Positions 3-28,466 of a stretch of DNA of 32,000 nt are shown here, piece after piece. The notes under the pieces were generated by a model. It was not told the DNA's origin, ran no database searches, and saw only the letters and a list, made by a program, of their open reading frames with translations. The position numbers and the translations under genes are program-made. Where the stretch lies: contig NZ_CP045921.1 in the NCBI RefSeq assembly GCF_025273655.1, positions 1,049,309-1,081,308 on the forward strand. The letters are read 5' to 3'. The DNA comes from Candidatus Saccharimonadota bacterium. GTDB taxonomy: Bacteria; Patescibacteriota; Saccharimonadia; Saccharimonadales; Saccharimonadaceae. Position 1 is the stretch's first letter; every line of letters begins with the position of its first letter.

Positions 3-2120
3 GTGGCCGATCGCAATGTCATATCCGGCAACGCTGCTAATGGTATCGGCATCACCAACCAGGCTGCCACCGGTAACAAAATCATCGGTAACTACGCTGG
101 TACTAACGCTGCCGGCACAGCTGCCATCCCCAACTACGGAGATGCTATCCTACTGAACAACAGCCAACACAACGACATAGGCGGCACGACCGGCACCACA
201 CCCGGTGGCGCATGCACCGGCTCATGTAACCTGTTCTCCGGCAATACCCACAACGGCATAGGATTCTACCTAGCAGACAACAACTCCGTGAAAGGCAATT
301 TCGTCGGGCTCAACGCAAGCGGCACCAGTGCGGTACCAAACGACGACATCGGCATCGAGTCCCAAGAAGCTGCCGGTATCACCATCGGCAATGCAACCGC
401 CGCTGGACGCAATGTGATCTCGGGCAACAAGGGCGCCGGTATCCTGCTCACTGGTAGTGCCACCACTGGTAACGTCGTAGCAGGCAATTTCGTCGGCACC
501 AACTCCGCTGGTACTGGTGCTGTCGGTAACTACAGTATCGGCATTAGCGTCGGTAACTCACCGGGCCTGGGCAACGGCTACGCACGAAACAACACTATTG
601 GCGGCACGGTTGACGCAGCCATACCATGTAGCGCAGCATCAACGCCATGTAATGTCATCTCAGGTAACGGCCAAAACGGTATGATTCTATCTGGTGGATC
701 AGGGACTGGCAATCTCGTGCTCAGTAACCATATCGGTCTCGACATCAACGGCGCGTCAAACGCCAATGTGCGCAACGGTATGGACGGTATTGGGATCCTC
801 AATTCGCCCAACAACACTATCGGCAATGACCTGGGCACTGGTCGCAACTACATCGGTGCCAATGGTGGAGCTGGTATCGTAACAGCAGGCGACGCTACCG
901 ATACCAACACAATCGCTGGCAATTATATCGGCCGTACCCGCGACGGCTACTCGGGCAATGCACAGGGTGGTGTGGTGCTATGGGGCGGCTACAATATCGC
1001 CATCGTCGGCAACTCGATCGGTGAAAACGGTGGCTATGGTATAGATATCGACGGTAACAAGGTCAGCCAGAATGATGCGGGTGACGGAGATGCCGGCGTG
1101 AATCACCATCAGAACTTCCCCGATGTATACTCGGTACGCAACAACGTCGGTTCGTCGACCACTACCACTGTGAGCGGTATGATGAGTAGTGCGCCAAACA
1201 AACAATACCGCATAGACTTCTTCAACAGCGCAGGCTGCAACGCAGGTAAGCCAGACAACTACGGCGAGGGTAATTCATATGTCGGCTCACAGATTGTCGG
1301 CACCGACCAGTTTGGCAATATCTCATTCTCATACCAAACCCCCACAACACTGCCGGGCAACACATATCTCACCACTACTGCTACGCTCATGGACGGTTCG
1401 TCGCCACGAGAAACCTCCGAGTTTTCCAAATGTCGCGTTGTTAACGCCTCCAAGCCTGCCGTGTCAAATGGTGCCAACTGGCTACTCAAAGACGATCTCA
1501 CCGAGGGTGTACAGGATCAGCAGTTTGGCTATGGATTCCCGCCCAACATGCTACTGTGCGCGTGGGATCCCGCCAAACCAGGCACTAAGCTACCAGTGGT
1601 AGTATCTGGCAACACGTGGTTTTTCCGTGCTAGCTACACTACGGGTGTCGCCGACAAGGTTGTGTCGTACGGCCCCGCCAACGGCAAACCAGTCTGTGGT
1701 GACTGGAATGGCGACGGGATCGACACCATCGGCATGGTCGACCCCGCCATGCGCTGGACACTCCGTAACAGCAACGACGGTGGCCCAGCCAATGCCGATT
1801 TCCAGTATGGCGGTGCGGGTATCCCTGTCGTCGGTGACTGGAATGGCGACGGCCGTGACACCATCGGCGTGTTCGAAACCGACACTAGCTCTTGGCGACT
1901 GCGCAACGAAAACAACTCCGGCGTACCAGACTATTCGTTCCAGTACGGCGGCCTCGGCACCTACCCGGTCGTCGGCAACTGGAACGGCGGTAGTTCCGAC
2001 GGGATCGGCACCTACAACCCGGGCAACGGCGAGTGGTCGCTCCGCAACACGCTCAGTGGCGGCCCCGTCAATACACACTACTACTTCGGCCAGTCAAACC
2101 CCCGACCGATGATCTGGTAG
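3..2120 (+). CDS. Large secreted/surface repeat protein, 5'-truncated by the window edge: parallel beta-helix repeats followed by FG-GAP/VCBS-like repeats
   Basis: The ORF is open to the window start, so it is 5' partial. The first ~370 aa are imperfect turns with NVISGN / GNxIG / NTIGG signatures typical of right-handed parallel beta-helix (PbH1/CASH-like) repeats. The last ~190 aa carry 3-4 repeats of GDWNGDGxDTIG followed by W(T/R/S)LRN (FG-GAP/VCBS-like). Stop TAG at 2118-2120. Confidence 0.8.
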   Translation: MADRNVISGNAANGIGITNQAATGNKIIGNYAGTNAAGTAAIPNYGDAILLNNSQHNDIGGTTGTTPGGACTGSCNLFSGNTHNGIGFYLADNNSVKGNFVGLNASGTSAVPNDDIGIESQEAAGITIGNATAAGRNVISGNKGAGILLTGSATTGNVVAGNFVGTNSAGTGAVGNYSIGISVGNSPGLGNGYARNNTIGGTVDAAIPCSAASTPCNVISGNGQNGMILSGGSGTGNLVLSNHIGLDINGASNANVRNGMDGIGILNSPNNTIGNDLGTGRNYIGANGGAGIVTAGDATDTNTIAGNYIGRTRDGYSGNAQGGVVLWGGYNIAIVGNSIGENGGYGIDIDGNKVSQNDAGDGDAGVNHHQNFPDVYSVRNNVGSSTTTTVSGMMSSAPNKQYRIDFFNSAGCNAGKPDNYGEGNSYVGSQIVGTDQFGNISFSYQTPTTLPGNTYLTTTATLMDGSSPRETSEFSKCRVVNASKPAVSNGANWLLKDDLTEGVQDQQFGYGFPPNMLLCAWDPAKPGTKLPVVVSGNTWFFRASYTTGVADKVVSYGPANGKPVCGDWNGDGIDTIGMVDPAMRWTLRNSNDGGPANADFQYGGAGIPVVGDWNGDGRDTIGVFETDTSSWRLRNENNSGVPDYSFQYGGLGTYPVVGNWNGGSSDGIGTYNPGNGEWSLRNTLSGGPVNTHYYFGQSNPRPMIW
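1680..2090 (+). repeat. Intragenic tandem coding repeats (~135-nt period) encoding the GDWNGDG units
   Basis: An exact 20-nt duplicate GGTGACTGGAATGGCGACGG occurs at 1698-1717 and 1833-1852, 135 nt (45 codons) apart. A diverged third copy GGCAACTGGAACGGCGG lies at 1974-1990. Confidence 0.75.
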
Positions 2121-2133
2121 TTACGCACAGAGA

Positions 2134-2670
2134 TTAGTTTGCCGCCAAAAACATATCTACGATACGAGGAATCATGATCCTATGATGAGTGATAGTGCGC
2201 TCCGGAAGCGCGTCAACTGGCCAAAATTTTCCTTCTTGTATCTCGTCGTCGCTGACATCAGTTACGAAATAAAACATGTGATTTAGTTCTTTTGCACGCC
2301 TGGAATCACCAAAACGAAGCCCCGCATACTCAATCTCGTCTATAGGCTTGACGACTCCATGCATTTCATCACGTAGCACTCTTTCCCTACAACTTGGGAA
2401 GTCCTGTCCTTCGGCATCCGATGCCCGAATTATCGTGCCAGTCATGTGCCATTCGCCCGGCCAGAAAGGATCATCTTTTGGACGCTGAGTCAGGAGTACT
2501 TCAGTGATACCCTGATTTACACGTATAGCCAAGAGCTCGTATGACGGCTGTGTTATCTTGGCGCTCACGGCGATAAACAAGTCGAAAGGAAGGTATCCTC
2601 GCGGCAATCTATTGAGCGTGTCTACCGCTTGACTAATCTCTTCATTGCTAGGTCGGTTTGTAGTGTCCAT
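2134..2670 (-). CDS. Nudix-fold-like hydrolase with a degenerate Nudix box
   Basis: The track ORF (to 2685) begins at a TTG; the first ATG (MDTTNRPS...) is at 2670. The segment WPGEWHMTGTIIRASDAEGQDFPSCRERVLRDEMHGV resembles the Nudix signature GX5EX7REUXEEXGU but carries insertions. There is no SD. A TATTAT box ends 6 nt before the ATG. Confidence 0.5.
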   Translation of the reverse strand: MDTTNRPSNEEISQAVDTLNRLPRGYLPFDLFIAVSAKITQPSYELLAIRVNQGITEVLLTQRPKDDPFWPGEWHMTGTIIRASDAEGQDFPSCRERVLRDEMHGVVKPIDEIEYAGLRFGDSRRAKELNHMFYFVTDVSDDEIQEGKFWPVDALPERTITHHRIMIPRIVDMFLAAN

Positions 2671-2672
2671 AA

Positions 2673-2681
2673 TGATATAAT
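2673..2681 (+). promoter_or_regulatory. Extended -10 promoter element (TGATATAAT) for the rmlCD-rmlA operon
   Basis: TGATATAAT at 2673-2681 is a perfect TGnTATAAT. It is followed by SD AAGGAGG (2695-2701) and ATG 2716. No convincing -35 was seen. Confidence 0.4.
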
Positions 2682-2715
2682 ACAAGGAGCATTAAAGGAG
2701 GTGCAAGTACGGGAA

Positions 2716-4131
2716 ATGGCAGATATATCTTCAGAAATTGAATTCAATAAACAACTCAAATCATACGAAACATCTATCGATGGACTCGTTGTATATGATC
2801 TGCCTGTCTTCGGTGATAATCGCGGCTGGTTCAAGGAGAACTGGCAACGCGAGAAGATGACTGCCGTCGGCCTGCCTGATTTTGGGCCAGTCCAAAACAA
2901 CTTTAGCTTCAACGATAAGCGCGGTGTGGCACGCGGTATCCACGCCGAACCATGGGATAAGTATGTTTCACTTGGTAGTGGCCGTATCTTCGGTTTCTGG
3001 GTCGACATCCGCGAAGGCAGCGCTACCTATGGCGAGCATTTCACTGTCGAACTTGATCCGTCCAAAGCCATTTTCGTCCCCCGCGGCGTGGCCAACGGCT
3101 ACCAAACGCTCGAAGACAACACCGTCTATAGCTACCTGGTCAACGACCATTGGTCGCCGGACGCTCAGTACTCGTTCGTGAGTATGTTCGACGAGTCGAT
3201 TGGCATCGACTGGCCGATTCCGCTCAGCGAGTGCGAAATCTCCGACAAAGACAAAAATCATCCGAACCTCGCTGATGCTGTGGCGATCAAACCCAAGAAA
3301 ACCCTCATAGTCGGAGCCAATGGGCAACTAGGTCGTGCGCTTCAGGTTCTATACCCAGAGGCAGAGTGTGTTGACCGTGATTCTCTCGACATCTCTTCGC
3401 CAGATGTCTTCACCGCTCGTCGCTGGCGTGATTATGGTACAATCCTGAACGCAGCAGCCTATACGGCTGTCGACCTAGCCGAGACGGAGCAGGGTCGCCG
3501 CGACGCCTGGACTGCCAATGCCACCGCTGTTGCTAACCTTGCTCGCATCGCTACCGAATACGGCATCACGCTCGTCCACGTCTCGAGCGATTACGTATTT
3601 GATGGCACAGCCGAGCAGCACACGGAGGATGAGGACTTCGCACCGCTGGGCGTCTACGGACAGAGCAAAGCCGCCGGAGATATCGTTGTCAGCACCACTC
3701 CGTGCCACTACATCGCTCGCACTAGTTGGGTTATCGGCGACGGTAACAATTTCGTACGCACCATGAATTCGTTGGCTGAAAAGGGTATCAAACCAAGCGT
3801 CGTCAGCGATCAAATTGGACGTCTCACATTTACCGAGGACTTAGCCGCTGGTATTAAGCATCTCCTCGACAATAAGGCACCGTTTGGCACCTACAACATA
3901 AGTAATGATGGTGAGCCAGCCAGCTGGGCTGATATCGCAGCTGAAGTCTACGAGCTGAGCGGTAAGTCCCGTGACGATGTCACACAAGTCACCACCGAGC
4001 AATATTACGAGGGTAAGACAGGTATTGCCCCTCGCCCGTTGCAAAGTACGCTCAATCTTGAGAAAATAAAAGCTACAGGCTTCGCTCCGCGTGAGTGGAA
4101 GACCGCACTAACAGAGTATTTGGAGAAATAA
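2716..4131 (+). CDS. rmlCD: Bifunctional dTDP-4-dehydrorhamnose 3,5-epimerase / dTDP-4-dehydrorhamnose reductase (RmlC-RmlD fusion)
   Basis: The N-terminal half has the RmlC cupin signature ([18 protein letters not shown] ... HAEPWDKYV ... [14 protein letters not shown]). From about nt 3298 the RmlD Rossmann signature begins ([15 protein letters not shown] ... [12 protein letters not shown] ... YGQSKAAGD). The track start 2629 is a TTG that overlaps the divergent gene. ATG 2716 lies downstream of AAGGAGG. Confidence 0.9.
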
Positions 4132-5000: not shown

Positions 5001-5029
5001 AACCTCTCGGTCAACCTGAGAGGTTTTTT
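5001..5029. terminator. Bidirectional rho-independent terminator between convergent rmlA and the GT-C-like gene
   Basis: Stem AACCTCTC (5001-5008) pairs with GAGAGGTT (5018-5025) around a 9-nt loop. A T-run follows on the + strand (5024-5029), and TTTT(AAA) follows on the - strand. Confidence 0.7.
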
Positions 5030-6410
5030 AGTGTGAAGTTTTACGCAAGATTGAGCGCGGTGCATTTCGAACCACAAACCACACAAATAGGACACTAATA
5101 CTAGTAGCTAACATACTCCAGTAGAGAAATCTCGCATCTGTGACGATACTACCCGGTGCATACGACAGAATATTGAGCATCGACGACGCTAGCATCACTA
5201 TGATTGGTGAATATAGTGTACTCCTACGGTGTCTGCGTGTGATATAGACGGCACACAACAGGCTCACTGCGACCCAAAACCACGCTGCGTATATAAACCT
5301 GAAATTGGCGTAACCAAAGTTGACAGTGTAGGAATACAGGATTGACTGTGTCGCCCTACTCGTGAGTTTGGTTTCGTCTTGCCGCGGGAAGACCATCTGC
5401 GACTCGTCCGGGAACAAGAACTGCATATATGTCTCGACTTTTTGCGCCATATACCTTGCAGGATGCTGTGATACCACCTGTGTCCAGTACCGTACCAGCT
5501 CTCGGCGTACGTGTGCATCATGAAAACCAGTTTCGTTCTTGAAACCACCTGAGCACTCTTCCCATGTAGCAAGTTTGGTCTGCGGTTGTGCGTACAGCGA
5601 ACAGCCCGATATGCGCACGAGCTTGTCTCTGACATTCGCAGGTGCGGTGCGCTGTATCTCATCGCTCGGGACAATATTCACGATATCCAGCGCATACATT
5701 GTCACAGTCGAAGAGCTTTTGTATGCATGTGTCATATACCCAAGCAGACTTACAAAGATAAGTGAACCGATCGCTATACCTACCGTGACACCGCTCACCA
5801 TCAAGCTGCGGCGCTTACTACCTTGCGGCAACAATGTATCTGCATAAAGCCACATGAGTGGTAGTACCGCGGCCACCGCGTTGACGCGCAGTGCAATTGC
5901 ATAGATAAGTAGCAGCGGGGTTATGGTGGCAATAGATATGCGCAACCATCGAGCTGTAATATACTCCGTACGAAGCAACCACGTCAGCGACGCCGCGAGC
6001 AGCAATGCAGTTCCCATCTGAGTATCTTTCCAGAGTACCCCACTCACTGCCAATACACTCGGCACAAAGGCCAAAGCAAATACGGCCAGCGCCTTGGCGA
6101 CACTCCTAGTGCGACCAAACATCAACGCAGCGAACACATAGAGTCCTGACCACAAAAACACTTGCTGTAATAGCAACAATCCGCTGTCGTTGCCGCCCAT
6201 GACATATATCAGCCCTGACCACACCAGGGCCATTGCGATAGGATGCCATGTGTCAAGCTGGCAATCGCCTGTCGCCTGGCAGAGTTGCCATACCGTATCA
6301 GTGGTGCGCATGCCGGGGTAGAACAGCAGTATCGAGACGAAGAGACCCACCATAGCGGCAACCAATAACCACCACTGCCGCCAAATCGCAGTATTGCCCC
6401 TCTGAATCAT
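5028..6410 (-). CDS. Polytopic membrane protein, GT-C-type glycosyltransferase candidate (family unassigned)
   Basis: 460 aa with about 10 or more hydrophobic helices. The first external loop carries acidic and aromatic residues ([15 protein letters not shown]...[10 protein letters not shown]), as in ArnT/PMT-like GT-C enzymes. Its ATG 6410 overlaps the GtrA stop (ATGA at 6407-6410). Confidence 0.6.
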
Positions 6411-6862
6411 TGCGTCATTGCACCGCCAGCTAGTTTAGCGAAGAGCAGCCTACGCAGACTAAAGCTCCAGAACACAACAATCGCGACAGATATCAGTTTG
6501 CCGATGAGGTAGAAAATATGGAACTGCTCAACCGTTACCCATAGTATCAAGCCGTTAAGCAATAGTCCCCCAAAACCAATGAGTGAAAAAAGTAGGAACT
6601 CTGTCTTCTTCTTGTCCGAGCTTTCAAACACCCATAGAATACTCAGAAAATAGTTCACAATCGTACCCAATATAAACGCCAAAAATGCCGATACAAGGTA
6701 GTGAATATGAAGATGCGAAGTAAATATATAGAGACTACCTATATCTACTAATGCAGAAAAGCCGCCCACAAATATATAGCGAAACAGCTGTATCAGCCCA
6801 TGTTGTGAACGATCCACAAACAGTAGATTGTAATACTCACCAATCGTGCGTCGCTTGGTCAT
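6407..6862 (-). CDS. GtrA-family membrane protein (polyprenyl-phosphate-sugar translocation associated)
   Basis: [22 protein letters not shown] plus four TM helices is the GtrA-like signature. The track start 6871 is a GTG. ATG 6862 forms an ATGA overlap with the upstream SDR stop (6859-6861). Confidence 0.85.
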
Positions 6863-8034: not shown

Positions 8035-9612
8035 ATGACGAAACAAAAGACTGCCATCATTATTGGTGCCGGCCCTGCAGGCCTCACAGCCGCACTAGAG
8101 CTGATCAAAAACACCGATATCAAACCAATCGTATTTGAGGCCTCAAACGATATCGGTGGTATCTCAAAAACAGTAAACTACAAAGGCAACCGTATCGATA
8201 TCGGCGGTCACCGCTTCTTCTCCAAGTCTGACACTGTGATGAAATGGTGGAACGACATCCTGCCAATCGAAAACACACCTGCGTCCAAAACGTTCATCAT
8301 GAAATACCGTGGCCAACAAGGCACGCTCAAAGGCGGCAAGGGCCCGAATCCAGACAAGACAGACGATGTAATGCTTGTACGCAGCCGCCTGAGCCGCATC
8401 TACTATGGCCGCAAGTTCTACGACTATCCAGTCTCGCTCAGCAAAAGCACCGTCAAAAACCTCGGCCCAAAGAAAATTGCCAAAATCGGCTATGGCTATG
8501 CTGCCACCAAGTTCCGCAAAGAAGACGAATCCAATCTAGAGGGCTTCTACATCAATCGTTTCGGCAAGGAACTCTACAACACCTTCTTTGCCAGCTACAC
8601 AGAGAAACTCTGGGGTGTTCCACCAAAAGAGATCGACTCTAGCTGGGGCGCACAGCGCGTCAAGGGTTTGTCGGTATCAAAAGTCATGCTCAACGCCGTC
8701 AAACCAAAGAAAAAAGCTGATATTAGCCAGAAAAACGTCGAGACAAGCCTGATCGAATCATTCCTCTATCCTAAACTTGGCCCTGGCCACATGTGGGAAA
8801 CGGTCGCCAAGATGGTAAAGAAGGGCGGCGGCGAAGTCCGCATGAACCAAGTCATCACCAAAATCCACGCCAAAGACGGCAAGATCGTAGCTGTTGATGT
8901 ACACGACTACAAAACAAAGAAGACCACCAAAGTCACTGGTGACTACTTCTTCTCGACCATGCCAGTCAACGAGCTGATCGCTGCGTTCGACGGCGTCAAG
9001 GTGCCAGCCGATGTCAAGCGTGTCGCCAAAGGTCTGCCGTTCCGCGACTTCATCACGGTGGGTATCCTAGCTAACAAGCTCAAGATCGCCAACCATACCG
9101 AACGCAAGACGAAGAATAACATCGTGCCCGACAACTGGATCTATATCCAAGAACCAGATGTAAAAGTGTGCCGATTGCAAATCTTCAACAACTGGAGCCC
9201 GTACCTCATCAAAGACCAAGATCAGATCTGGGTAGGCATGGAATACGTGGTAAGCGAAAAAGATGATGTCTGGAAAAAGAGCGACAAAGACATGGCGGAA
9301 TTTGGTATCAAAGAGCTCGAGAAGATCGATATTCTCGATCCAAAAGAGGTGCTCGATACAACTGTAATCAAACTCAAGAAGACCTATCCTGCGTACTTCG
9401 GCACCTACCAAGAGTTCGACAAGGTCAAAGACTTCACTGACGAGTTCGACAACCTCTACCTCATTGGTCGCAACGGTCAGCACCGCTATAACAACCAAGA
9501 CCATTCCATGCTCACTGCCATCGCCGCAGTCGACAACATCAAGACGGGCCGCAAAGACAAAGAAAACGTCTGGAACGTCAACGTCGAAAAAGAGTATCAC
9601 GAGTCAAAATAG
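8035..9612 (+). CDS. FAD-dependent oxidoreductase (amine-oxidase / UDP-galactopyranose-mutase-like Rossmann class)
   Basis: The N-terminus is [18 protein letters not shown]...[10 protein letters not shown]...IDIGGHRFF (GxGxxG dinucleotide fold plus GG motif). The protein is 525 aa with no TM segments and is divergent from the SDR-GtrA-GT-C operon. Confidence 0.8.
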
Positions 9613-13424: not shown

Positions 13425-13453
13425 TTGTAAAACATAAGCCTTTCAGATACAAT
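13425..13453 (+). promoter_or_regulatory. Sigma70-like promoter for the 13474/14061 gene pair
   Basis: TTGTAA (13425-13430), a 17-nt spacer, then TACAAT (13448-13453). These are followed by SD AGGAG (13464-13468) and ATG 13474. Confidence 0.4.
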
Positions 13454-13473
13454 AGAAGGCAAAAGGAGCATAT

Positions 13474-14052
13474 ATGCAGCTACAAAAACAAAAAAGTCGC
13501 AAAAAACCGCTCATCATCACATCGCTTATCATACTTTGCGTCGCCGTAGCAGTGGGCGCATGGTATGTAATACATACGCGTAGTCAGCAGTCCGAATCTT
13601 ACACCACCAAACCAGCCACACAAGAGGAAAAGGACGCGGGAACTCAGACAAAACAGGATTCGATCAACAACTCGAGCCAACAGGGTGCGTCTGACTCTGA
13701 TACTAGCACCAACAGCGACAAGCAATCTGGTGCCTCGACCGACACCGGTACATCTACCACTACTCCTGCTGCTGCCGTCACTATCTCTGCAAGCGCCCAA
13801 AACGGCAACACCTACCAACTTCGCTTCCTCATCAACTCTGTCGTCACTGGCGGCACCTGCCAACTGACGCTCACAAAAGGTAGTGCAACCGTCACCAAAC
13901 AAGCGGCTATTCAGTCGCTCGCTCAGTCCTCAACTTGCCAGGGCTTCGACATCCCTACGAGCGAGCTCAGCACGGGTACCTGGAACGTCTCAATGCAGCT
14001 CAGTGGCAGTAGCCATACTGGTGGCGTAACTGGCACCATAGAGGTAAGGTAG
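13474..14052 (+). CDS. Membrane-anchored extracytoplasmic protein with a Ser/Thr-rich linker; function unknown
   Basis: A basic N-terminus precedes one TM helix (LIITSLIILCVAVAVGAWYVI). An ~80-aa S/T/Q/D-rich low-complexity linker follows, then a ~90-aa beta-rich domain with two Cys. Good SD. The gene ends 8 nt before the next gene. Confidence 0.6.
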   Translation: MQLQKQKSRKKPLIITSLIILCVAVAVGAWYVIHTRSQQSESYTTKPATQEEKDAGTQTKQDSINNSSQQGASDSDTSTNSDKQSGASTDTGTSTTTPAAAVTISASAQNGNTYQLRFLINSVVTGGTCQLTLTKGSATVTKQAAIQSLAQSSTCQGFDIPTSELSTGTWNVSMQLSGSSHTGGVTGTIEVR

Positions 14053-14060
14053 TAATAGGT

Positions 14061-15989
14061 ATGTATTCACTACTCCATGGCATTGGCCTCACATGCGCAG
14101 GATTGGCGATCACCCTCACCATATCACTTGTCGGCAATACTACACATGCTGCCGGATTCGACGCTGGCCGTATCATCGACGACAGTGTATTCACCGACAA
14201 AAACACCATGAGCCCCGCCTATATTCAGGCGTTTCTGAATAGCAAAGTACCGAGCTGTGACACCTGGGGCACCCAGACATCGGAGTACGGTGGTGGCACT
14301 CGTCGCCAGTGGGCCGAAGCTCGTGGCTACATGGCACCTTACACCTGCTTGCGCGACTATACCGAAAACGGCCGCTCTGCCGCGCAGATTATCTACGACA
14401 CTGCTCAGGCCTACTCTATCAACCCGCAAGTTTTGATCGTCCTCCTCCAAAAAGAGCAGGGGCTTGTCACCGACACCTGGCCTGTTTCGGTCCAGTACCG
14501 CTCAGCCACCGGCTACGGCTGCCCCGACACCGCTCCATGCGACTCACAGTATTATGGCCTCACTAATCAACTAAGCTGGGCTGCCAAAATGTTCCGGGCC
14601 ATCATGGATGCATCACCTAGCTGGTATACACCCTATATAGTCGGTACCAACTACATCCGCTACAATCCAGACGCCAGCTGTGGCGGCTCCAATGTTGCGA
14701 TCCAAAACCGCGCCACTCAGGCACTCTACAACTACACCCCCTACCAACCGAACGCTGCAGCACTCGCGGCCGCCATGGGCACAACTGTTCCATGTGGTGC
14801 CTACGGCAATATCAACTTCTACCGCTACTTCACCTCATGGTTTGGTAACACATCCGGTGCACCCTATAGCTGGCGTGTCGAATCGACCACACTCTACTAT
14901 GACGCCGCACGCACACAGATTGTCTCCAACACCAACGGCATCTACAATATCAAACCCGGCCAAAAAGTCTATGCGCGCGTCGTTACCACTAACACAGGCT
15001 GGCTCACCTGGCCCAAAGCTACAACACGACTCGGTACACAACGGGGTCAGGATCGAAGCTCAGCGTTCGCCGACAGCAGCTGGCAGCAACCAAATCGTAC
15101 AGGCGGCTACACTGAGAGTGGCGATGTCGCTCCCGGCAATCAAGCCACCTTCAACTACAGCCTCACAGCTCCACAATCGCCAGATATCTACGAAGAATGG
15201 TTTGGTGTCGTAGTGGAAGGTGCCGGCTGGGTGTCGAACCCGACATTCCTACACAATATCTCTGTGGCAGCGGCACTCGACACTAAGTATAAATCCACCA
15301 ACGACAAACTCAGTAGCGGCGCTACCCTTACCCCGGGCCAAAACATCATCTCGAGCGACGGCCACTCGGTACTTCACCTGTCGTTTGGCGGAAGCTTAGA
15401 AATCTGGACCAACTATACTAAGCGTTGGACTAGTAACACCGACAATAGCGGCGCCAATCGCCTTGTCAATCAAACCGATGGCAATCTAGTACTGTACCGC
15501 GACAACACGCCGCTCTGGGCATCTAATACATTCTCGCCTGGCACAAGCGGCCAGCTCACCCTGCAAAGCGACGGCAACTTGGTGATGTATAAAAACGGCA
15601 GTGCAGCCTGGGCATCCAACTCTGTAACATTTGATCAAACCGACCTCGCGAACAGTCTTGTGCTTGGTGACCAAACTATTTTCCCAGGTCAGTCACTTTT
15701 CACGCCAGATCGTTATTACCGCCTCACCTTACAGACAGACGGCAATATCGTCCTCTATACGCCGACGCGTGCTATCTGGGCTAGCAACACCTATGGCAGA
15801 AAGTTTGACCGTATGATCATCCAAAACGACGGCAATATCGTTACCTACGATGGCAATAATTATGCTACCTGGTCGACACGAACCAATTCTACCGGTGGCA
15901 CCATCTTCCGTATACAGGGTGATGGCAACTCGGTACTTTACGCAGGCAATAGGCCGCTCTGGGCAAGCAATACGTTCCTAGTGCGCTAA
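14061..15989 (+). CDS. Secreted protein: unassigned Cys-rich N-terminal domain, Ig-like middle region and two tandem bulb-type (B_lectin/MMBL) lectin domains
   Basis: The signal peptide is MYSLLHGIGLTCAGLAITLTISLVGNTTHA/AG. The C-terminal residues ~414-642 carry five intact QxDxNxVxY motifs: QTDGNLVLY, QSDGNLVMY, QTDGNIVLY, QNDGNIVTY and QGDGNSVLY. Confidence 0.85.
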   Translation: MYSLLHGIGLTCAGLAITLTISLVGNTTHAAGFDAGRIIDDSVFTDKNTMSPAYIQAFLNSKVPSCDTWGTQTSEYGGGTRRQWAEARGYMAPYTCLRDYTENGRSAAQIIYDTAQAYSINPQVLIVLLQKEQGLVTDTWPVSVQYRSATGYGCPDTAPCDSQYYGLTNQLSWAAKMFRAIMDASPSWYTPYIVGTNYIRYNPDASCGGSNVAIQNRATQALYNYTPYQPNAAALAAAMGTTVPCGAYGNINFYRYFTSWFGNTSGAPYSWRVESTTLYYDAARTQIVSNTNGIYNIKPGQKVYARVVTTNTGWLTWPKATTRLGTQRGQDRSSAFADSSWQQPNRTGGYTESGDVAPGNQATFNYSLTAPQSPDIYEEWFGVVVEGAGWVSNPTFLHNISVAAALDTKYKSTNDKLSSGATLTPGQNIISSDGHSVLHLSFGGSLEIWTNYTKRWTSNTDNSGANRLVNQTDGNLVLYRDNTPLWASNTFSPGTSGQLTLQSDGNLVMYKNGSAAWASNSVTFDQTDLANSLVLGDQTIFPGQSLFTPDRYYRLTLQTDGNIVLYTPTRAIWASNTYGRKFDRMIIQNDGNIVTYDGNNYATWSTRTNSTGGTIFRIQGDGNSVLYAGNRPLWASNTFLVR

Positions 15990-16967: not shown

Positions 16968-18164
16968 TTAGTTGAGACTCTGAAGTAGCCAGTCGCCACT
17001 CTGCGTGCGACGCTTATCCAGCTGCGAATTAATGTGTGTCCAGTCGATAGTATCTAGCGAACTTGGGTCAAACGCATCAAGTGCAGTTTCGTCGACAAAC
17101 CGGCTTTCGAGTCCATATTCAGACAGAAAGCTATGCAGACGCGATAAGCCACCGTGAGTGCGACCTACTACGATAAAGTTTGTGTTGTTAATGACAGAGA
17201 ACAGCAGGCCATGGTAGGAATTGGTGACGACGAGATCGCTGTCGCGAAACCCTTTGAGCCATAACTCCATAGGAGGCAGTGTATCATTTTCTGCGCCACC
17301 ATGTGTTCGAATCTCGGTCGCCTTTGCCACACCGTAATATCGCTTCATCCGCGAGATGAACGCTTTTTCTTTTGTGGTCTGGTCGATAATATAAGTAAAG
17401 ACTGGCTGCACTTGTTCGTCCGACGCCGCGCTTTTGTCTATGAGAGTAGAGTAGTCATTTCGTGAAAGCAAAAGTGTCGGATCGACAGTATTCACGACGT
17501 CGTCGCGCCCCCATGTATCGAACACTATATCGACGCCCGTCTCCTCGCGCACCGAAAGGCTATCAAATAGCTGTATGTGGGGTCGTACGTATTCGATGTC
17601 GTCTGGCGTCATAGCATCGCCGATCTGCTCCATACCGAAGCTCGCTGCATATGCTACACGGTTTACCTCGCGACCCTCTAAGAAATCGAGAAAGTAGTAG
17701 CCAAGTGTCTCACTATTATTCCACCAGTTGCGCCATACCTGATCAGAACCAACTACATAGTGTCCAAACGTATCTTTGGGGTCAAACGGCTTGATCCATA
17801 TATTATCGTTTACGAATTCGATGATATGTCCGATACGATGCGATTCTGGGTGTATATCATAGAGTGATGGCACGTACCAGTATGGCCGCTGCGACCTAAG
17901 GAAGCGTTTAATTGCTCGGGCAGGAGTTTTGAGGCGACTCCGCCGAGTGATCCTGTAATGATCGTGTGGCGCCGAATGCGTATCGACATACGATACAAAT
18001 TTATGGCCATGCTGAACGAGGAATTGTTGTAGCGCATAGCGCTGAATAACATTACCGTAATTGAAATACCCCGTGAGAGTCAATATTGCACCGTCAGCAT
18101 GACTATAGTGGCGACGATCGAGGCGCCTGCCTACTCGAGTCAGTAGCTCGCTAATATACCTCAA
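16968..18164 (-). CDS. Polysaccharide pyruvyl transferase family protein
   Basis: LTLTGYFNYGNVIQRYAL (N-terminal glycine/N.G motif) and DLVVTNSYHGLLFSVI resemble the PS_pyruv_trans (CsaB/WcaK-like) signatures. The start is TTG 18164, preceded by GAGAGGGGA. There is no in-frame ATG near the N-terminus. Confidence 0.6.
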   Translation of the reverse strand: MRYISELLTRVGRRLDRRHYSHADGAILTLTGYFNYGNVIQRYALQQFLVQHGHKFVSYVDTHSAPHDHYRITRRSRLKTPARAIKRFLRSQRPYWYVPSLYDIHPESHRIGHIIEFVNDNIWIKPFDPKDTFGHYVVGSDQVWRNWWNNSETLGYYFLDFLEGREVNRVAYAASFGMEQIGDAMTPDDIEYVRPHIQLFDSLSVREETGVDIVFDTWGRDDVVNTVDPTLLLSRNDYSTLIDKSAASDEQVQPVFTYIIDQTTKEKAFISRMKRYYGVAKATEIRTHGGAENDTLPPMELWLKGFRDSDLVVTNSYHGLLFSVINNTNFIVVGRTHGGLSRLHSFLSEYGLESRFVDETALDAFDPSSLDTIDWTHINSQLDKRRTQSGDWLLQSLN

Positions 18165-26533: not shown

Positions 26534-27598
26534 ATGCGTTTACTCGAATACGAAGCCAAGCGACTCCTCGCAACTAGCGGTATTGCAGTACCAAACTCTC
26601 AGCTGCTGCACACCCCAGACGAGTTACCCGAAGTGTTCCCCGCTGTCATCAAGGCACAAGTACTCACTGGTCGCCGCAATAAATTTGGCGGTATACAGCT
26701 CGTACGTGAGCAGGGGAAACTCGCCGAAGCGGTGCGTTCGGTCTTCGTAGCGGATATCGATGGCTATACAGCCACCAGCGTACTTGCCGAGGAGTTGCTC
26801 GACATCGACCGCGAGTTCTACCTGAATGTATCTGTCGATCGCGACGAGCAGGCAATCGTACTCATGGCGCACAAAGATGGTGGTGTGGATATTGAGTCAC
26901 AGCCACTTGATGCGTTTTTCCGCGAAGTAGCCGATGACACTACAGAGACACAGGCGCTTCGCTTGGCAGAATATCTTGGTCTAGAGTCACAAGAATTTGC
27001 ACTAGGCGAACTCATCGGAAAGATTGTCGGTTGCATGCGTACGCAGGACGCGCTGCTGTGTGAGATTAACCCTCTCGTCCTGACGCGCAGTGGCATACTC
27101 GTGGCAGCCGACTGCAAAATGGAGCTCGACAATGCCGCGAGCTTTCGTCACCCCGACTGGGATTTCTACGACAAACCCACAAGCGCCAATTTTGTCGAGC
27201 TCGACAAACAGGGCGTAGTCGCTACTATTGCCAATGGAGCCGGCCTCGCCATGGCGACAGTCGATGCCGTGTCTGCTGCAGGTTATTCACCCACAAACTT
27301 CCTAGATATTGGTGGCGGAGCAAGTAAGGACACTGTACTCGCAGCGTTTCACGAGCTCATGACCTACCCACTACTGGATGCAATCGTCATCAATATCTTC
27401 GCCGGTATCACCCGCTGCGACGAGGTGGCGCGTGCCATCCTCGCGGCTCGCGAGGAAATTGCCAATCTCCCCCAGCTCTATATTCGCCTTGACGGCACCA
27501 ACGTAGACCAAGCAAAAGAGATATTAGCCGAATCGCAACTTCCGCTCTATCCGTCACTCGGTGAAGCCGTAGCTGCAATAGGAGCTCATAATGTCTAG
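26534..27598 (+). CDS. sucC: Succinyl-CoA synthetase beta-subunit-like ATP-grasp protein (ADP-forming acyl-CoA ligase beta)
   Basis: MRLLEYEAKRLL..., ...CEINPLV..., NGAGLAMATVD and FLDIGGGAS...INIFAGITRCD are collinear with SucC. The protein is 354 aa, shorter than E. coli SucC as I recall it (388 aa). The glycine-rich loop reads TGRRNKFGG. Confidence 0.8.
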   Translation: MRLLEYEAKRLLATSGIAVPNSQLLHTPDELPEVFPAVIKAQVLTGRRNKFGGIQLVREQGKLAEAVRSVFVADIDGYTATSVLAEELLDIDREFYLNVSVDRDEQAIVLMAHKDGGVDIESQPLDAFFREVADDTTETQALRLAEYLGLESQEFALGELIGKIVGCMRTQDALLCEINPLVLTRSGILVAADCKMELDNAASFRHPDWDFYDKPTSANFVELDKQGVVATIANGAGLAMATVDAVSAAGYSPTNFLDIGGGASKDTVLAAFHELMTYPLLDAIVINIFAGITRCDEVARAILAAREEIANLPQLYIRLDGTNVDQAKEILAESQLPLYPSLGEAVAAIGAHNV

Positions 27599-28466
27599 CG
27601 TCTTTGCGCCTAAATCCGTCATCGTCCAAGGTATCACCGGTTCCCATGGGTCGTTTCATGCGCGCGCTATGCGTGACTATGGTACAAATGTTGTAGCTGG
27701 CACATCACCAAACAAAGCGGGGGAGTCGGTCGACAGCATCCCCGTGTACCGCACGGTTCGCGATATCCAAGCTGAGCATGAGGTAGACGCCACTGTTATT
27801 TTCGTCCCCGCCAGCGCTGCTCGCGGCGCCATCTTCGAGGCTATTGACGCACATATCCCGCTCATTGTCTGTATCACCGAAGGTATCCCCGTGCACGACA
27901 TGCTAGCCGTCCGCCAGAAGCTCAGTACGAGCAACTGCGTACTTGTCGGCCCAAATAGCCCCGGTATCGCTATGCCTGGCCAATCCAAACTCGGCATCAT
28001 CCCTAGCCACATCCTCTCACCTGGTCGTATCGGCGTCGTGAGTCGCAGCGGTACGCTTACCTACGAAGCAGTGAGTGATCTGACGCGTGCCGGACTTGGC
28101 CAAGCAAGTGTCCTCGGTATTGGTGGTGACTCAATAAAAGGCTTGGATTTCGTCGACTGCCTGGCGCAGTTCGAAGCCGACGAGCGCGTCGATGCAGTCG
28201 TATTGATTGGTGAGATCGGCGGGCAGAGCGAAAATAAAGCCGCCGAATATATCAAAACATCCGCCAGCAAGCCTGTCGTCGCCTACATCGCCGGCCATGC
28301 CGCTCCAGCCGGTGTGCAGCTTGGCCACGCTGGCGCCATACTCGGTACCCAGTCTGAGTCTGCCGTCTACAAATCACAGCAGCTGCGAGACGCTGGGGTA
28401 ACCGTAGTAGACAGTGTGACCGACATCGCTCCGGCAATACAAACAAGGCTAGGAGTCACCACATGA
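27591..28466 (+). CDS. sucD: Succinyl-CoA synthetase alpha-subunit-like protein (CoA-binding, phosphohistidine)
   Basis: VIVQGITGSHGSFHARAMRDYGTNVVAGTSPNKAG, VSRSGTLTYE and the phosphohistidine loop GHAGAIL are all present. SD GGAG lies 6 nt upstream. The start overlaps the sucC-like stop by 8 nt. Confidence 0.9.
   Translation: MSSVFAPKSVIVQGITGSHGSFHARAMRDYGTNVVAGTSPNKAGESVDSIPVYRTVRDIQAEHEVDATVIFVPASAARGAIFEAIDAHIPLIVCITEGIPVHDMLAVRQKLSTSNCVLVGPNSPGIAMPGQSKLGIIPSHILSPGRIGVVSRSGTLTYEAVSDLTRAGLGQASVLGIGGDSIKGLDFVDCLAQFEADERVDAVVLIGEIGGQSENKAAEYIKTSASKPVVAYIAGHAAPAGVQLGHAGAILGTQSESAVYKSQQLRDAGVTVVDSVTDIAPAIQTRLGVTT

Follow-up and report, generated by a model that had tools for sequence, protein, structure and literature searches.

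In bacteria, tandem monocot mannose-binding lectin (MMBL) domains are familiar chiefly from LlpA-type bacteriocins, ~28-kDa stand-alone proteins that have a C-terminal extension, lack a signal peptide, and act via BamA of Gram-negative outer membranes. The known hosts and neighbors of Saccharibacteria are Gram-positive Actinobacteria. A gene for a secreted protein carrying two such lectin domains lies in the genome of a Candidatus Saccharimonadota bacterium (NCBI RefSeq assembly GCF_025273655.1), within a stretch of 32,000 nucleotides of contig NZ_CP045921.1 (positions 1,049,309 to 1,081,308 of the forward strand) that was analyzed as a whole and is referred to here as the window; positions below are those of the window. 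The gene is a 642-aa open reading frame (ORF) with an ATG start (14061..15989, + strand), and it had been singled out in an earlier interpretation made from the letters and translated ORFs, hereafter the sequence-only reading. Our best reading of its product is a lectin-targeted, lysozyme-like wall glycosidase of endolysin-like build, accompanied by a membrane-anchored partner encoded immediately upstream. The locus thereby bears on the open question of how ultrasmall epibionts of the candidate phyla radiation (CPR)/Patescibacteria recognize, hold, and feed on their hosts.

A literature search returned no paper describing this protein family, its two-gene cassette, or the exchange of tails reported below. 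Only two related items were found. One is a preprint on the TM7x pilus, in which rhamnose, mannose, and glucose inhibited binding to the host, and the lectins behind this binding were described as yet to be identified. The other is a transposon-sequencing (Tn-seq) study of Southlakia epibionticum ML1 (Wang et al., 2023, Cell; PMC10633639), whose Tables S1 and S2 are the source of the SEML1 gene data used here. In co-culture, SEML1_0890, SEML1_0891, and the adjacent exporter and GT2 genes were class II essential; the text mentions VCBS and FN3 domains only, and speculates about host glycan targeting, with adhesion as one option (PMC10633639). SEML1_0891 is labeled lysozyme-like in a supplementary table only, and the paper reports neither a family nor a cassette nor any exchange of tails (PMC10633639). 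As far as the literature shows, then, the lectin domains are known, and what is new is the combination of a lysozyme-like head, swappable lectin tails, and an obligatory partner gene, conserved across a CPR lineage and, for the syntenic pair, essential in one species.

The two tandem MMBL domains are real and far beyond chance. Five exact copies of the motif QxDxNxVxY (QTDGNLVLY, QSDGNLVMY, QTDGNIVLY, QNDGNIVTY, and QGDGNSVLY, at residues 471, 502, 558, 588, and 619) stand against an expectation of 0.0004 from composition and a maximum of one copy in 20,000 shuffles, and no additional copy occurs in any frame across the window. The motif scan thus recovered what the sequence-only reading had listed, including the degenerate sixth subsite, SFGGSLEIW (residues 441–449). 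The same reading had noted a Trp after each motif, in four of the five cases as WASN; this holds, except that the Trp lies at +7, +7, +7, +8, and +7, a spacing of 7–8 residues and not 5–7. Of the three subsites expected per ~110-aa domain, lectin domain 1 (residues ~414–530; 15300..15650, +) retains two of its three subsites (Q471 and Q502), and domain 2 (residues ~531–642 and the stop codon; 15651..15989, +) all three (Q558, Q588, and Q619), a 2+3 pattern that is also kept in most homologs with the same Ig-plus-two-lectin architecture. The Pfam B_lectin model (PF01453), which had been proposed as a check, matches at 39.8 bits, above its gathering cut-off of 32.4 (E 6.8e-10), and is matched by 31 of 36 homologs (best E 5.7e-22). 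Residues ~450–640 match solved MMBL structures (GAFP-1, 4e-21; SCAfet, 2e-19; pyocin L1, 1.5e-18; putidacin L1, 1e-17), and the family profile recovers pyocin L1 from the PDB at 7e-30. From this homology (1e-21 to 7e-30) we infer a beta-prism II fold. Separately, the recently solved PDB entry 9oee ('Secreted esterase', 696 aa) contains a B_lectin-like region at residues 188–319 that matches the family profile at 1e-9, and is a further case of a bacterial enzyme equipped with an MMBL module for targeting.

The lectins form only the C-terminal part of the protein. Residues 1–30 (14061..14150, +) have the shape of a signal peptide as read from the sequence, with a hydrophobic core and a predicted cleavage between THA and AG; in homologs, likewise, a hydrophobic core comes after an n-region rich in Lys, in agreement with the secretion originally proposed. 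Neither a lipobox nor a sortase motif could be read in the 642 residues. Between the conserved N-terminal domain (hereafter the N-domain) and the lectins, residues ~277–409 (14889..15287, +), which the sequence-only reading had left unassigned, form an Ig-like domain of the NBR1/N_BRCA1_IG type. Pfam PF16158 falls below its cut-off here in the window protein (E 0.0067), and is found in 32 of the 36 homologs (best E 7.7e-15), with one to four copies in relatives.

The N-domain itself (residues 31–275; 14151..14885, +) had also been set aside as unassignable, apart from the observation that the mature N-terminal part carries six Cys. The Cys residues are as described (66, 96, 154, 160, 207, and 245; five invariant in the family and one nearly so), but this region proves to be the defining part of the family. 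In alignment it is the N-domain, and not the lectins, that is most conserved: identity to the window protein is mostly 63–78% (range 57–93%), against 30–45% for the Ig and lectin parts. Invariant features include L-Q-K-E-Q (with E132), D138, Y146, ATGY-CPD, YTPYQP, GN-NF, and WFG, as well as further polar residues (Q130, Q133, D156, and several Tyr and Asn). Residues 31–275 gave no sequence-profile match in Pfam (E<=10, 36 members), NCBIfam, PHROG, or the PDB, and no tblastn match against 50,697 phage genomes; the lectin region, searched against phages in the same way, gave only three weak Pseudomonas phage matches, which are uninformative on host.

An AlphaFold2 model of the N-domain, built from 121 sequences, is confident and mostly helical (mean predicted local distance difference test, pLDDT, 91; predicted template modeling score, pTM, 0.86). 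Foldseek against the PDB gave a best E of 0.3 and none significant, but the top 50 matches are almost all peptidoglycan glycosidases of the lysozyme superfamily: LytB and AtlE (GH73), Tse3, MltE, SltB, MltF, and g-type lysozyme, with the pneumococcal separation autolysin LytB as the best match. Among viral models (BFVD), nearly all of the top 50 matches are again of this superfamily, here phage SLT/GH73 proteins, with a best E of 0.02 and probabilities up to 0.93. For the Southlakia protein, DPAM in Wang et al. (2023; PMC10633639) placed residues 21–65 and 91–265 of SEML1_0891 in the ECOD group 'Lysozyme-like' (probability 0.929). E132 lies at the C-terminal end of helix 92–103 of the model, and a single hhalign alignment of the family profile with goose lysozyme, which is not significant (E 0.25), sets the family's ...INPQVLIVLLQKEQ on goose ...VEPAVIAGIISRES and E132 on the catalytic E73. 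We conclude that the N-domain probably represents a divergent, so far unnamed family in the lysozyme-like superfamily, with a putative glycosidase activity and E132 as its candidate catalytic Glu.

A domain with a lysozyme-like fold need not cut. Were it inert and simply bound to peptidoglycan, the protein would be a multivalent glycan adhesin held at the surface by its partner, and the weakness of the fold matches, the high avidity that five lectin pockets would give, and the inclusion of adhesion among the options of Wang et al. (PMC10633639) all accord with such a role. The constraint on the domain nevertheless resembles that on an active site and not on a binding surface, given the invariant E132, D138, D156, Q130, Q133, and Tyr/Asn residues, and in Actinobacteria true GH25 muramidases take the equivalent position, ahead of LGFP modules. 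We consider a pure adhesin unlikely.

The second component of the system was missed by the sequence-only reading. A co-conserved gene (13474..14052, +) encodes a transmembrane (TM)-anchored Ig-like protein of 192 aa and ends 8 nt before the lectin gene, an operon-like spacing. The 128-nt gap upstream of this two-gene cassette contains a promoter-like site, TTGTAA-17-TACAAT (13425..13453, +; a consensus match only), and a ribosome-binding site, AAAGGAG, precedes the partner gene (13463–13469, +). The partner has a basic N-terminus, one TM helix (11–35), a short helix (50–61), a disordered Ser/Thr/Gln-rich linker (62–93), and a C-terminal two-Cys Ig-like beta-sandwich (100–192; AlphaFold2 pLDDT 96–98) whose Cys residues, C129 and C155, never vary. 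Of 81 loci (one locus from each of 81 genomes/species), 80 have a partner homolog immediately upstream on the same strand, abutting or overlapping, whatever the tail of the downstream gene. Foldseek with the partner model returned generic Ig and carbohydrate-binding-module (CBM) sandwiches only, with no lysozyme-inhibitor or immunity fold; our guess is that the protein serves as a tether, a regulator, or a self-protection factor.

The family is widespread. A search of 5.8 billion proteins gave more than 7,000 matches to the 642-aa protein; full-length relatives are 40–86% identical, and the few named ones belong to Candidatus Saccharibacteria and bear the annotation 'Curculin protein' or 'hypothetical'. 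The identical protein also occurs on a 56.9-kb Logan contig. When one genome per GTDB species was scanned for the N-domain, at least 566 stretches encoding it were found, almost all in Saccharibacteria/Saccharimonadales, oral Nanosynbacter included; beyond the relatives surveyed there exist ~1,000 weaker matches (E 1e-10 to 1e-3). Every locus examined has a single copy of the N-domain gene. Three long relatives (P0167, P0168, and P0169; 824–1116 aa) are matched by the N-domain in 4–6 separate stretches at ~43% identity and may contain the lysozyme-like domain in two or more copies; these three have no recognized tail domains, and Pfam scans of P0167 and other long or multi-copy relatives added nothing further.

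What follows the N-domain varies greatly. Its tails include B_lectin, Ricin-B, Tectonin, FG-GAP, DUF5648, ChW, LGFP, CARDB-like Ig, and Ig repeats, as well as several that are unrecognized, and all-against-all clustering distinguished at least 16 tail types in the 81 loci. The arrangement seen in the window, one Ig and two MMBL domains, occurs in nine loci (eight besides the window's contig); two loci have two Ig domains and one MMBL, and others have two to four Ig repeats, LGFP x7, ChW x8, Ricin-B x3, or Tectonin (the last four in loci L012, L024, L019, and L037). Tail type agrees with that of the nearest N-domain relative in only 29 of the 81 loci; the nearest relative of the window protein itself (76% N-domain identity) has a CARDB-type tail. 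In short, the same head is joined in relatives to differing known wall- or glycan-binding modules, as it is in modular wall hydrolases. A constant head with a swappable binding module is, by analogy, the design of endolysins and of Gram-positive autolysins. The lectin sites are conserved in homologs of the same architecture, and the originally suggested role in glycan targeting as opposed to biosynthesis is supported.

The diversity of tails also bears on how far the analogy with LlpA, drawn by the sequence-only reading, can be taken. In that scenario, the tandem MMBL module would itself kill competitors after docking on a rhamnose-containing glycan, and its similarity to pyocin L1/L2 and putidacin L1 is in keeping with this. 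As a family assignment, however, the analogy fails: the NCBIfam model LLB_putidacin (NF033557) reaches 117.6 bits against a cut-off of 275, its best stretch covering 101 of 274 profile positions; the protein, at 642 residues against the ~250–280 of the stand-alone bacteriocins, also includes a signal peptide, the N-domain, and an Ig-like domain, and lacks a C-terminal extension, since it ends 3 residues past the last WASNTF; and the lectins, as one of at least 16 tails, are replaceable by unrelated modules in relatives. LlpA-type membership was therefore rejected on score, architecture, and lectin replaceability, and bacteriocin action of this type is scarcely credible here.

One tail is informative about the possible target. 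In the family member with an LGFP tail, the nearest relatives of the tail outside Saccharibacteria are found only in Actinobacteria, where LGFP modules are fused to GH25 lysozymes (~650 aa, like the family member), L,D-transpeptidases, deacetylases, and NlpC/P60 proteins; identity to the modules of actinobacterial GH25 lysozymes is ~40%. This suggests module exchange between Saccharibacteria and the host phylum, and at least some tails are of a type that the host phylum uses. Because actinobacterial LGFP modules follow GH25 lysozymes of like overall size, the N-domain would sit in the slot of a muramidase.

The window covers a locus for a wall glycopolymer. Its genes include RmlA (above the NCBIfam cut-off), an RmlC-RmlD fusion, GtrA, membrane glycosyltransferases of the DUF2142 and YfhO types, GT2 and GT4 glycosyltransferases, a pyruvyl transferase, and a TagH/Wzt- and Wzm-like ABC exporter. 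The sequence-only reading had described a rhamnose-glycan locus and had linked it to the D-rhamnose bound by LlpA. The Rml genes and many glycosyltransferases are indeed present, but the Rml pathway yields dTDP-L-rhamnose, and because these genes make L-rhamnose, the argument from D-rhamnose and LlpA does not carry over. Nor does the gene interrupt the locus, as had been suggested: its place beside a Wzm/Wzt-type exporter and GT2 recurs in other Saccharibacteria, Southlakia included, and this recurrence across genomes also led us to reject a horizontal insertion there. In 25 of the loci, no more than 6 kb separates the cassette from the exporter ATPase, and in others the same holds for GT2 or Rml genes. 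In Southlakia, the order of a YfhO-like gene (SEML1_0889), SEML1_0890, the abutting SEML1_0891, GT2, ABC ATPase, ABC permease, GT2, and SucC is that of the window; SEML1_0890 (195 aa, Ig/FN3 at 96–195) matches the partner in size and Ig position, whereas SEML1_0891 (565 aa) joins its lysozyme-like domain to a 7-bladed FG-GAP/VCBS propeller and not to an Ig domain and two MMBL domains.

This setting gives weight to a housekeeping alternative. Here, the enzyme would be an autolysin that remodels the cell's own peptidoglycan during growth, budding, daughter separation, or the passage of pili and secretion machines; its lectin tail would anchor on the cell's own variable wall glycopolymer, much as choline-binding or SLH modules anchor Gram-positive autolysins, and the partner would be a membrane-bound regulator. 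It is a serious rival because of its linkage to the exporter and the essentiality class in common with it, its wide presence, and its constrained head. In many genomes, and in Southlakia, the cassette has Wzm/Wzt-type exporter, GT2, and Rml genes as neighbors, and the exporter and GT2 genes of Southlakia share the GD/ES/ES essentiality pattern of the cassette (PMC10633639); the family is very widespread, with one copy per locus examined; the glycosyltransferase content nearby is as variable as the tail (most of the window's glycosyltransferases have orthologs in only 1–12 of the 81 loci); and the best PDB fold match, LytB, is itself a separation autolysin. Against it stand the LGFP and ChW tails, of kinds characteristic of the host phylum Actinobacteria; the lack of correspondence between lectin tail type and nearby Rml genes; and the very rapid turnover of tails between close N-domain relatives. 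We regard this autolysin role, in both its enzymatic and its anchoring parts, as a real, if tentative, possibility.

The same linkage and common essentiality could also be explained if the protein were a hydrolase that trims or releases the glycopolymer that the cell itself exports through its ABC transporter, and if the lectins bound this polymer, in analogy with BcsZ, PslG, and AlgL, which are encoded in exopolysaccharide operons. The catalytic-like domain, however, is near-invariant while the glycosyltransferase set differs between genomes, a contrast that speaks for a substrate that is itself constant, such as the backbone of peptidoglycan. A polymer-processing role is, in our judgment, quite improbable.

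Returning to a lectin-targeted wall glycosidase, we tentatively take its main target to be the wall of the actinobacterial host where the epibiont attaches, with a confidence that stops somewhat short of even. Four points favor the host wall: tails of actinobacterial type, the rapid turnover of tails, an epibiotic way of life, and the inhibition of host binding by sugars. In such a mechanism, the product would be exported by Sec; the five-pocket MMBL lectins and the Ig-like domain would dock on a mannose- or rhamnose-type glycopolymer of the Gram-positive wall; and the lysozyme-like N-domain, with E132 as candidate catalytic residue, would then cut the peptidoglycan glycan backbone locally. 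The linker of the partner, which is possibly wall-spanning, and its Ig-like head would hold or restrain the enzyme at the epibiont surface, as tether, regulator, or self-protection. The interchangeable C-terminal tail would adapt a constant cutting head to differing host surfaces.

Several points weigh against this interpretation. The near-universal presence of the family, the conservation of the N-domain, and its fixed place beside the cell's own glycan export genes fit an autolysin equally well, as does the essentiality class common to the cassette and those genes. Tn-seq in an obligate epibiont cannot separate functions in self-growth from those in host interaction, and orthology with SEML1_0890 and SEML1_0891 is deduced from synteny and architecture and not from sequence alignment. 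The Foldseek matches of the N-domain are individually not significant (E 0.02–1; TM-score 0.2–0.37) and no sequence profile connects it to any glycosidase family, so that catalysis is unproven. The role of the partner is a guess because its fold is generic. Finally, the MMBL motif does not reveal sugar specificity, and mannose or rhamnose are candidate ligands only.

It is conceivable, though on balance doubtful, that the cassette is a general Saccharibacteria device to recognize and breach hosts, in which a constant cutter opens host peptidoglycan where the cells touch, the fast-changing tail sets which Actinobacteria can be parasitized, and the partner holds the cutter on the epibiont and away from its own wall. 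If this were true, tail type could predict the hosts of uncultivated Saccharibacteria. Were the protein instead an autolysin acting on the cell's own wall, it would still rank as a lineage-specific cell-wall enzyme that is essential and has an unusual regulator. In either case, what emerges is a secreted protein pair of wide conservation whose syntenic counterpart is essential in one cultivated species.

Several other genes of the window are of note. The RmlC (epimerase)-RmlD (reductase) fusion (500 aa; 2629–4131, +) is followed by RmlA; there is no clear RmlB within the window, where a short-chain dehydrogenase/reductase (SDR) at 6859–7998 matches GalE/dehydratase models weakly. Between RmlA and GtrA, a 460-aa protein with ~7 hydrophobic segments and no family match (5028–6410, −) may be a polymerase, ligase, or flippase-type component of the glycan pathway. 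A 705-aa ORF running off the start of the window (3–2120, +) contains 'N-x-I-x-G-N...G-I' repeats, has no Pfam or PHROG match and no TM segment, and has a homolog in one of the 81 related loci; its repeats have the look of a right-handed beta-helix, and it is possibly a surface adhesin or polysaccharide-active protein. An FAD-dependent amine-oxidase-like protein (8035–9612, +) scores 821 bits with NCBIfam NF005546 (PRK07208, 'hypothetical protein'), a well-conserved unnamed family found here inside a glycan locus. Downstream of the cassette lie a polysaccharide pyruvyl transferase (16968–18164) and, within the glycosyltransferase cluster, the succinyl-CoA ligase subunits SucC/SucD (26534–28466, +); the adjacency of GT2 and SucC is also seen in Southlakia (SEML1_0895/0896). 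In an organism of minimal metabolism, SucC/SucD could supply succinyl groups for glycan decoration.

Comparison with known systems places the cassette among, yet apart from, several described designs. With the LlpA bacteriocins (putidacin L1 and pyocin L1/L2; PDB 3m7h, 4le7, and 9pxj), the window protein shares tandem MMBL domains, the QxDxNxVxY motif, and significant sequence similarity, but here the lectins serve as an accessory tail to a secreted, enzyme-like protein of 642 aa. The LysM-MMBL lectin of Mycobacterium smegmatis (PDB 4oit, 'LysM domain protein'), one of the strongest single-domain hits of the family profile (2.7e-29), likewise combines MMBL with a peptidoglycan-directed module; it differs in pairing a peptidoglycan-binding LysM with one lectin, and has neither a lysozyme-like head nor a partner gene. 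Tse3–Tsi3 (PDB 4luq and 3wa5) resembles the cassette in setting a lysozyme-like wall degrader beside a small, beta-rich envelope protein, and Tse3 is among the fold matches, so that an immunity role for the partner might be entertained as speculation by analogy. The family partner, however, is encoded upstream and TM-anchored via a long linker; no secretion-system link was found for the cassette, and Foldseek showed no similarity of the partner to Tsi3 or known lysozyme inhibitors. The likeness to modular Gram-positive hydrolases and endolysins lies in the overall build: LytB (GH73 with choline-binding repeats; PDB 7pj3/7pj4) joins one glycosidase head to repeated wall-binding modules, and the actinobacterial GH25-LGFP lysozymes (P0321, P0334, and P0337) have the module and the size of the LGFP-tailed family member. 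Unlike these, the family described here has a head that is a separate sequence family, undetected by Pfam, NCBIfam, and PDB profiles; its tails include true lectin folds (MMBL, Ricin-B, and Tectonin), and it is accompanied by an obligatory membrane-protein partner gene.

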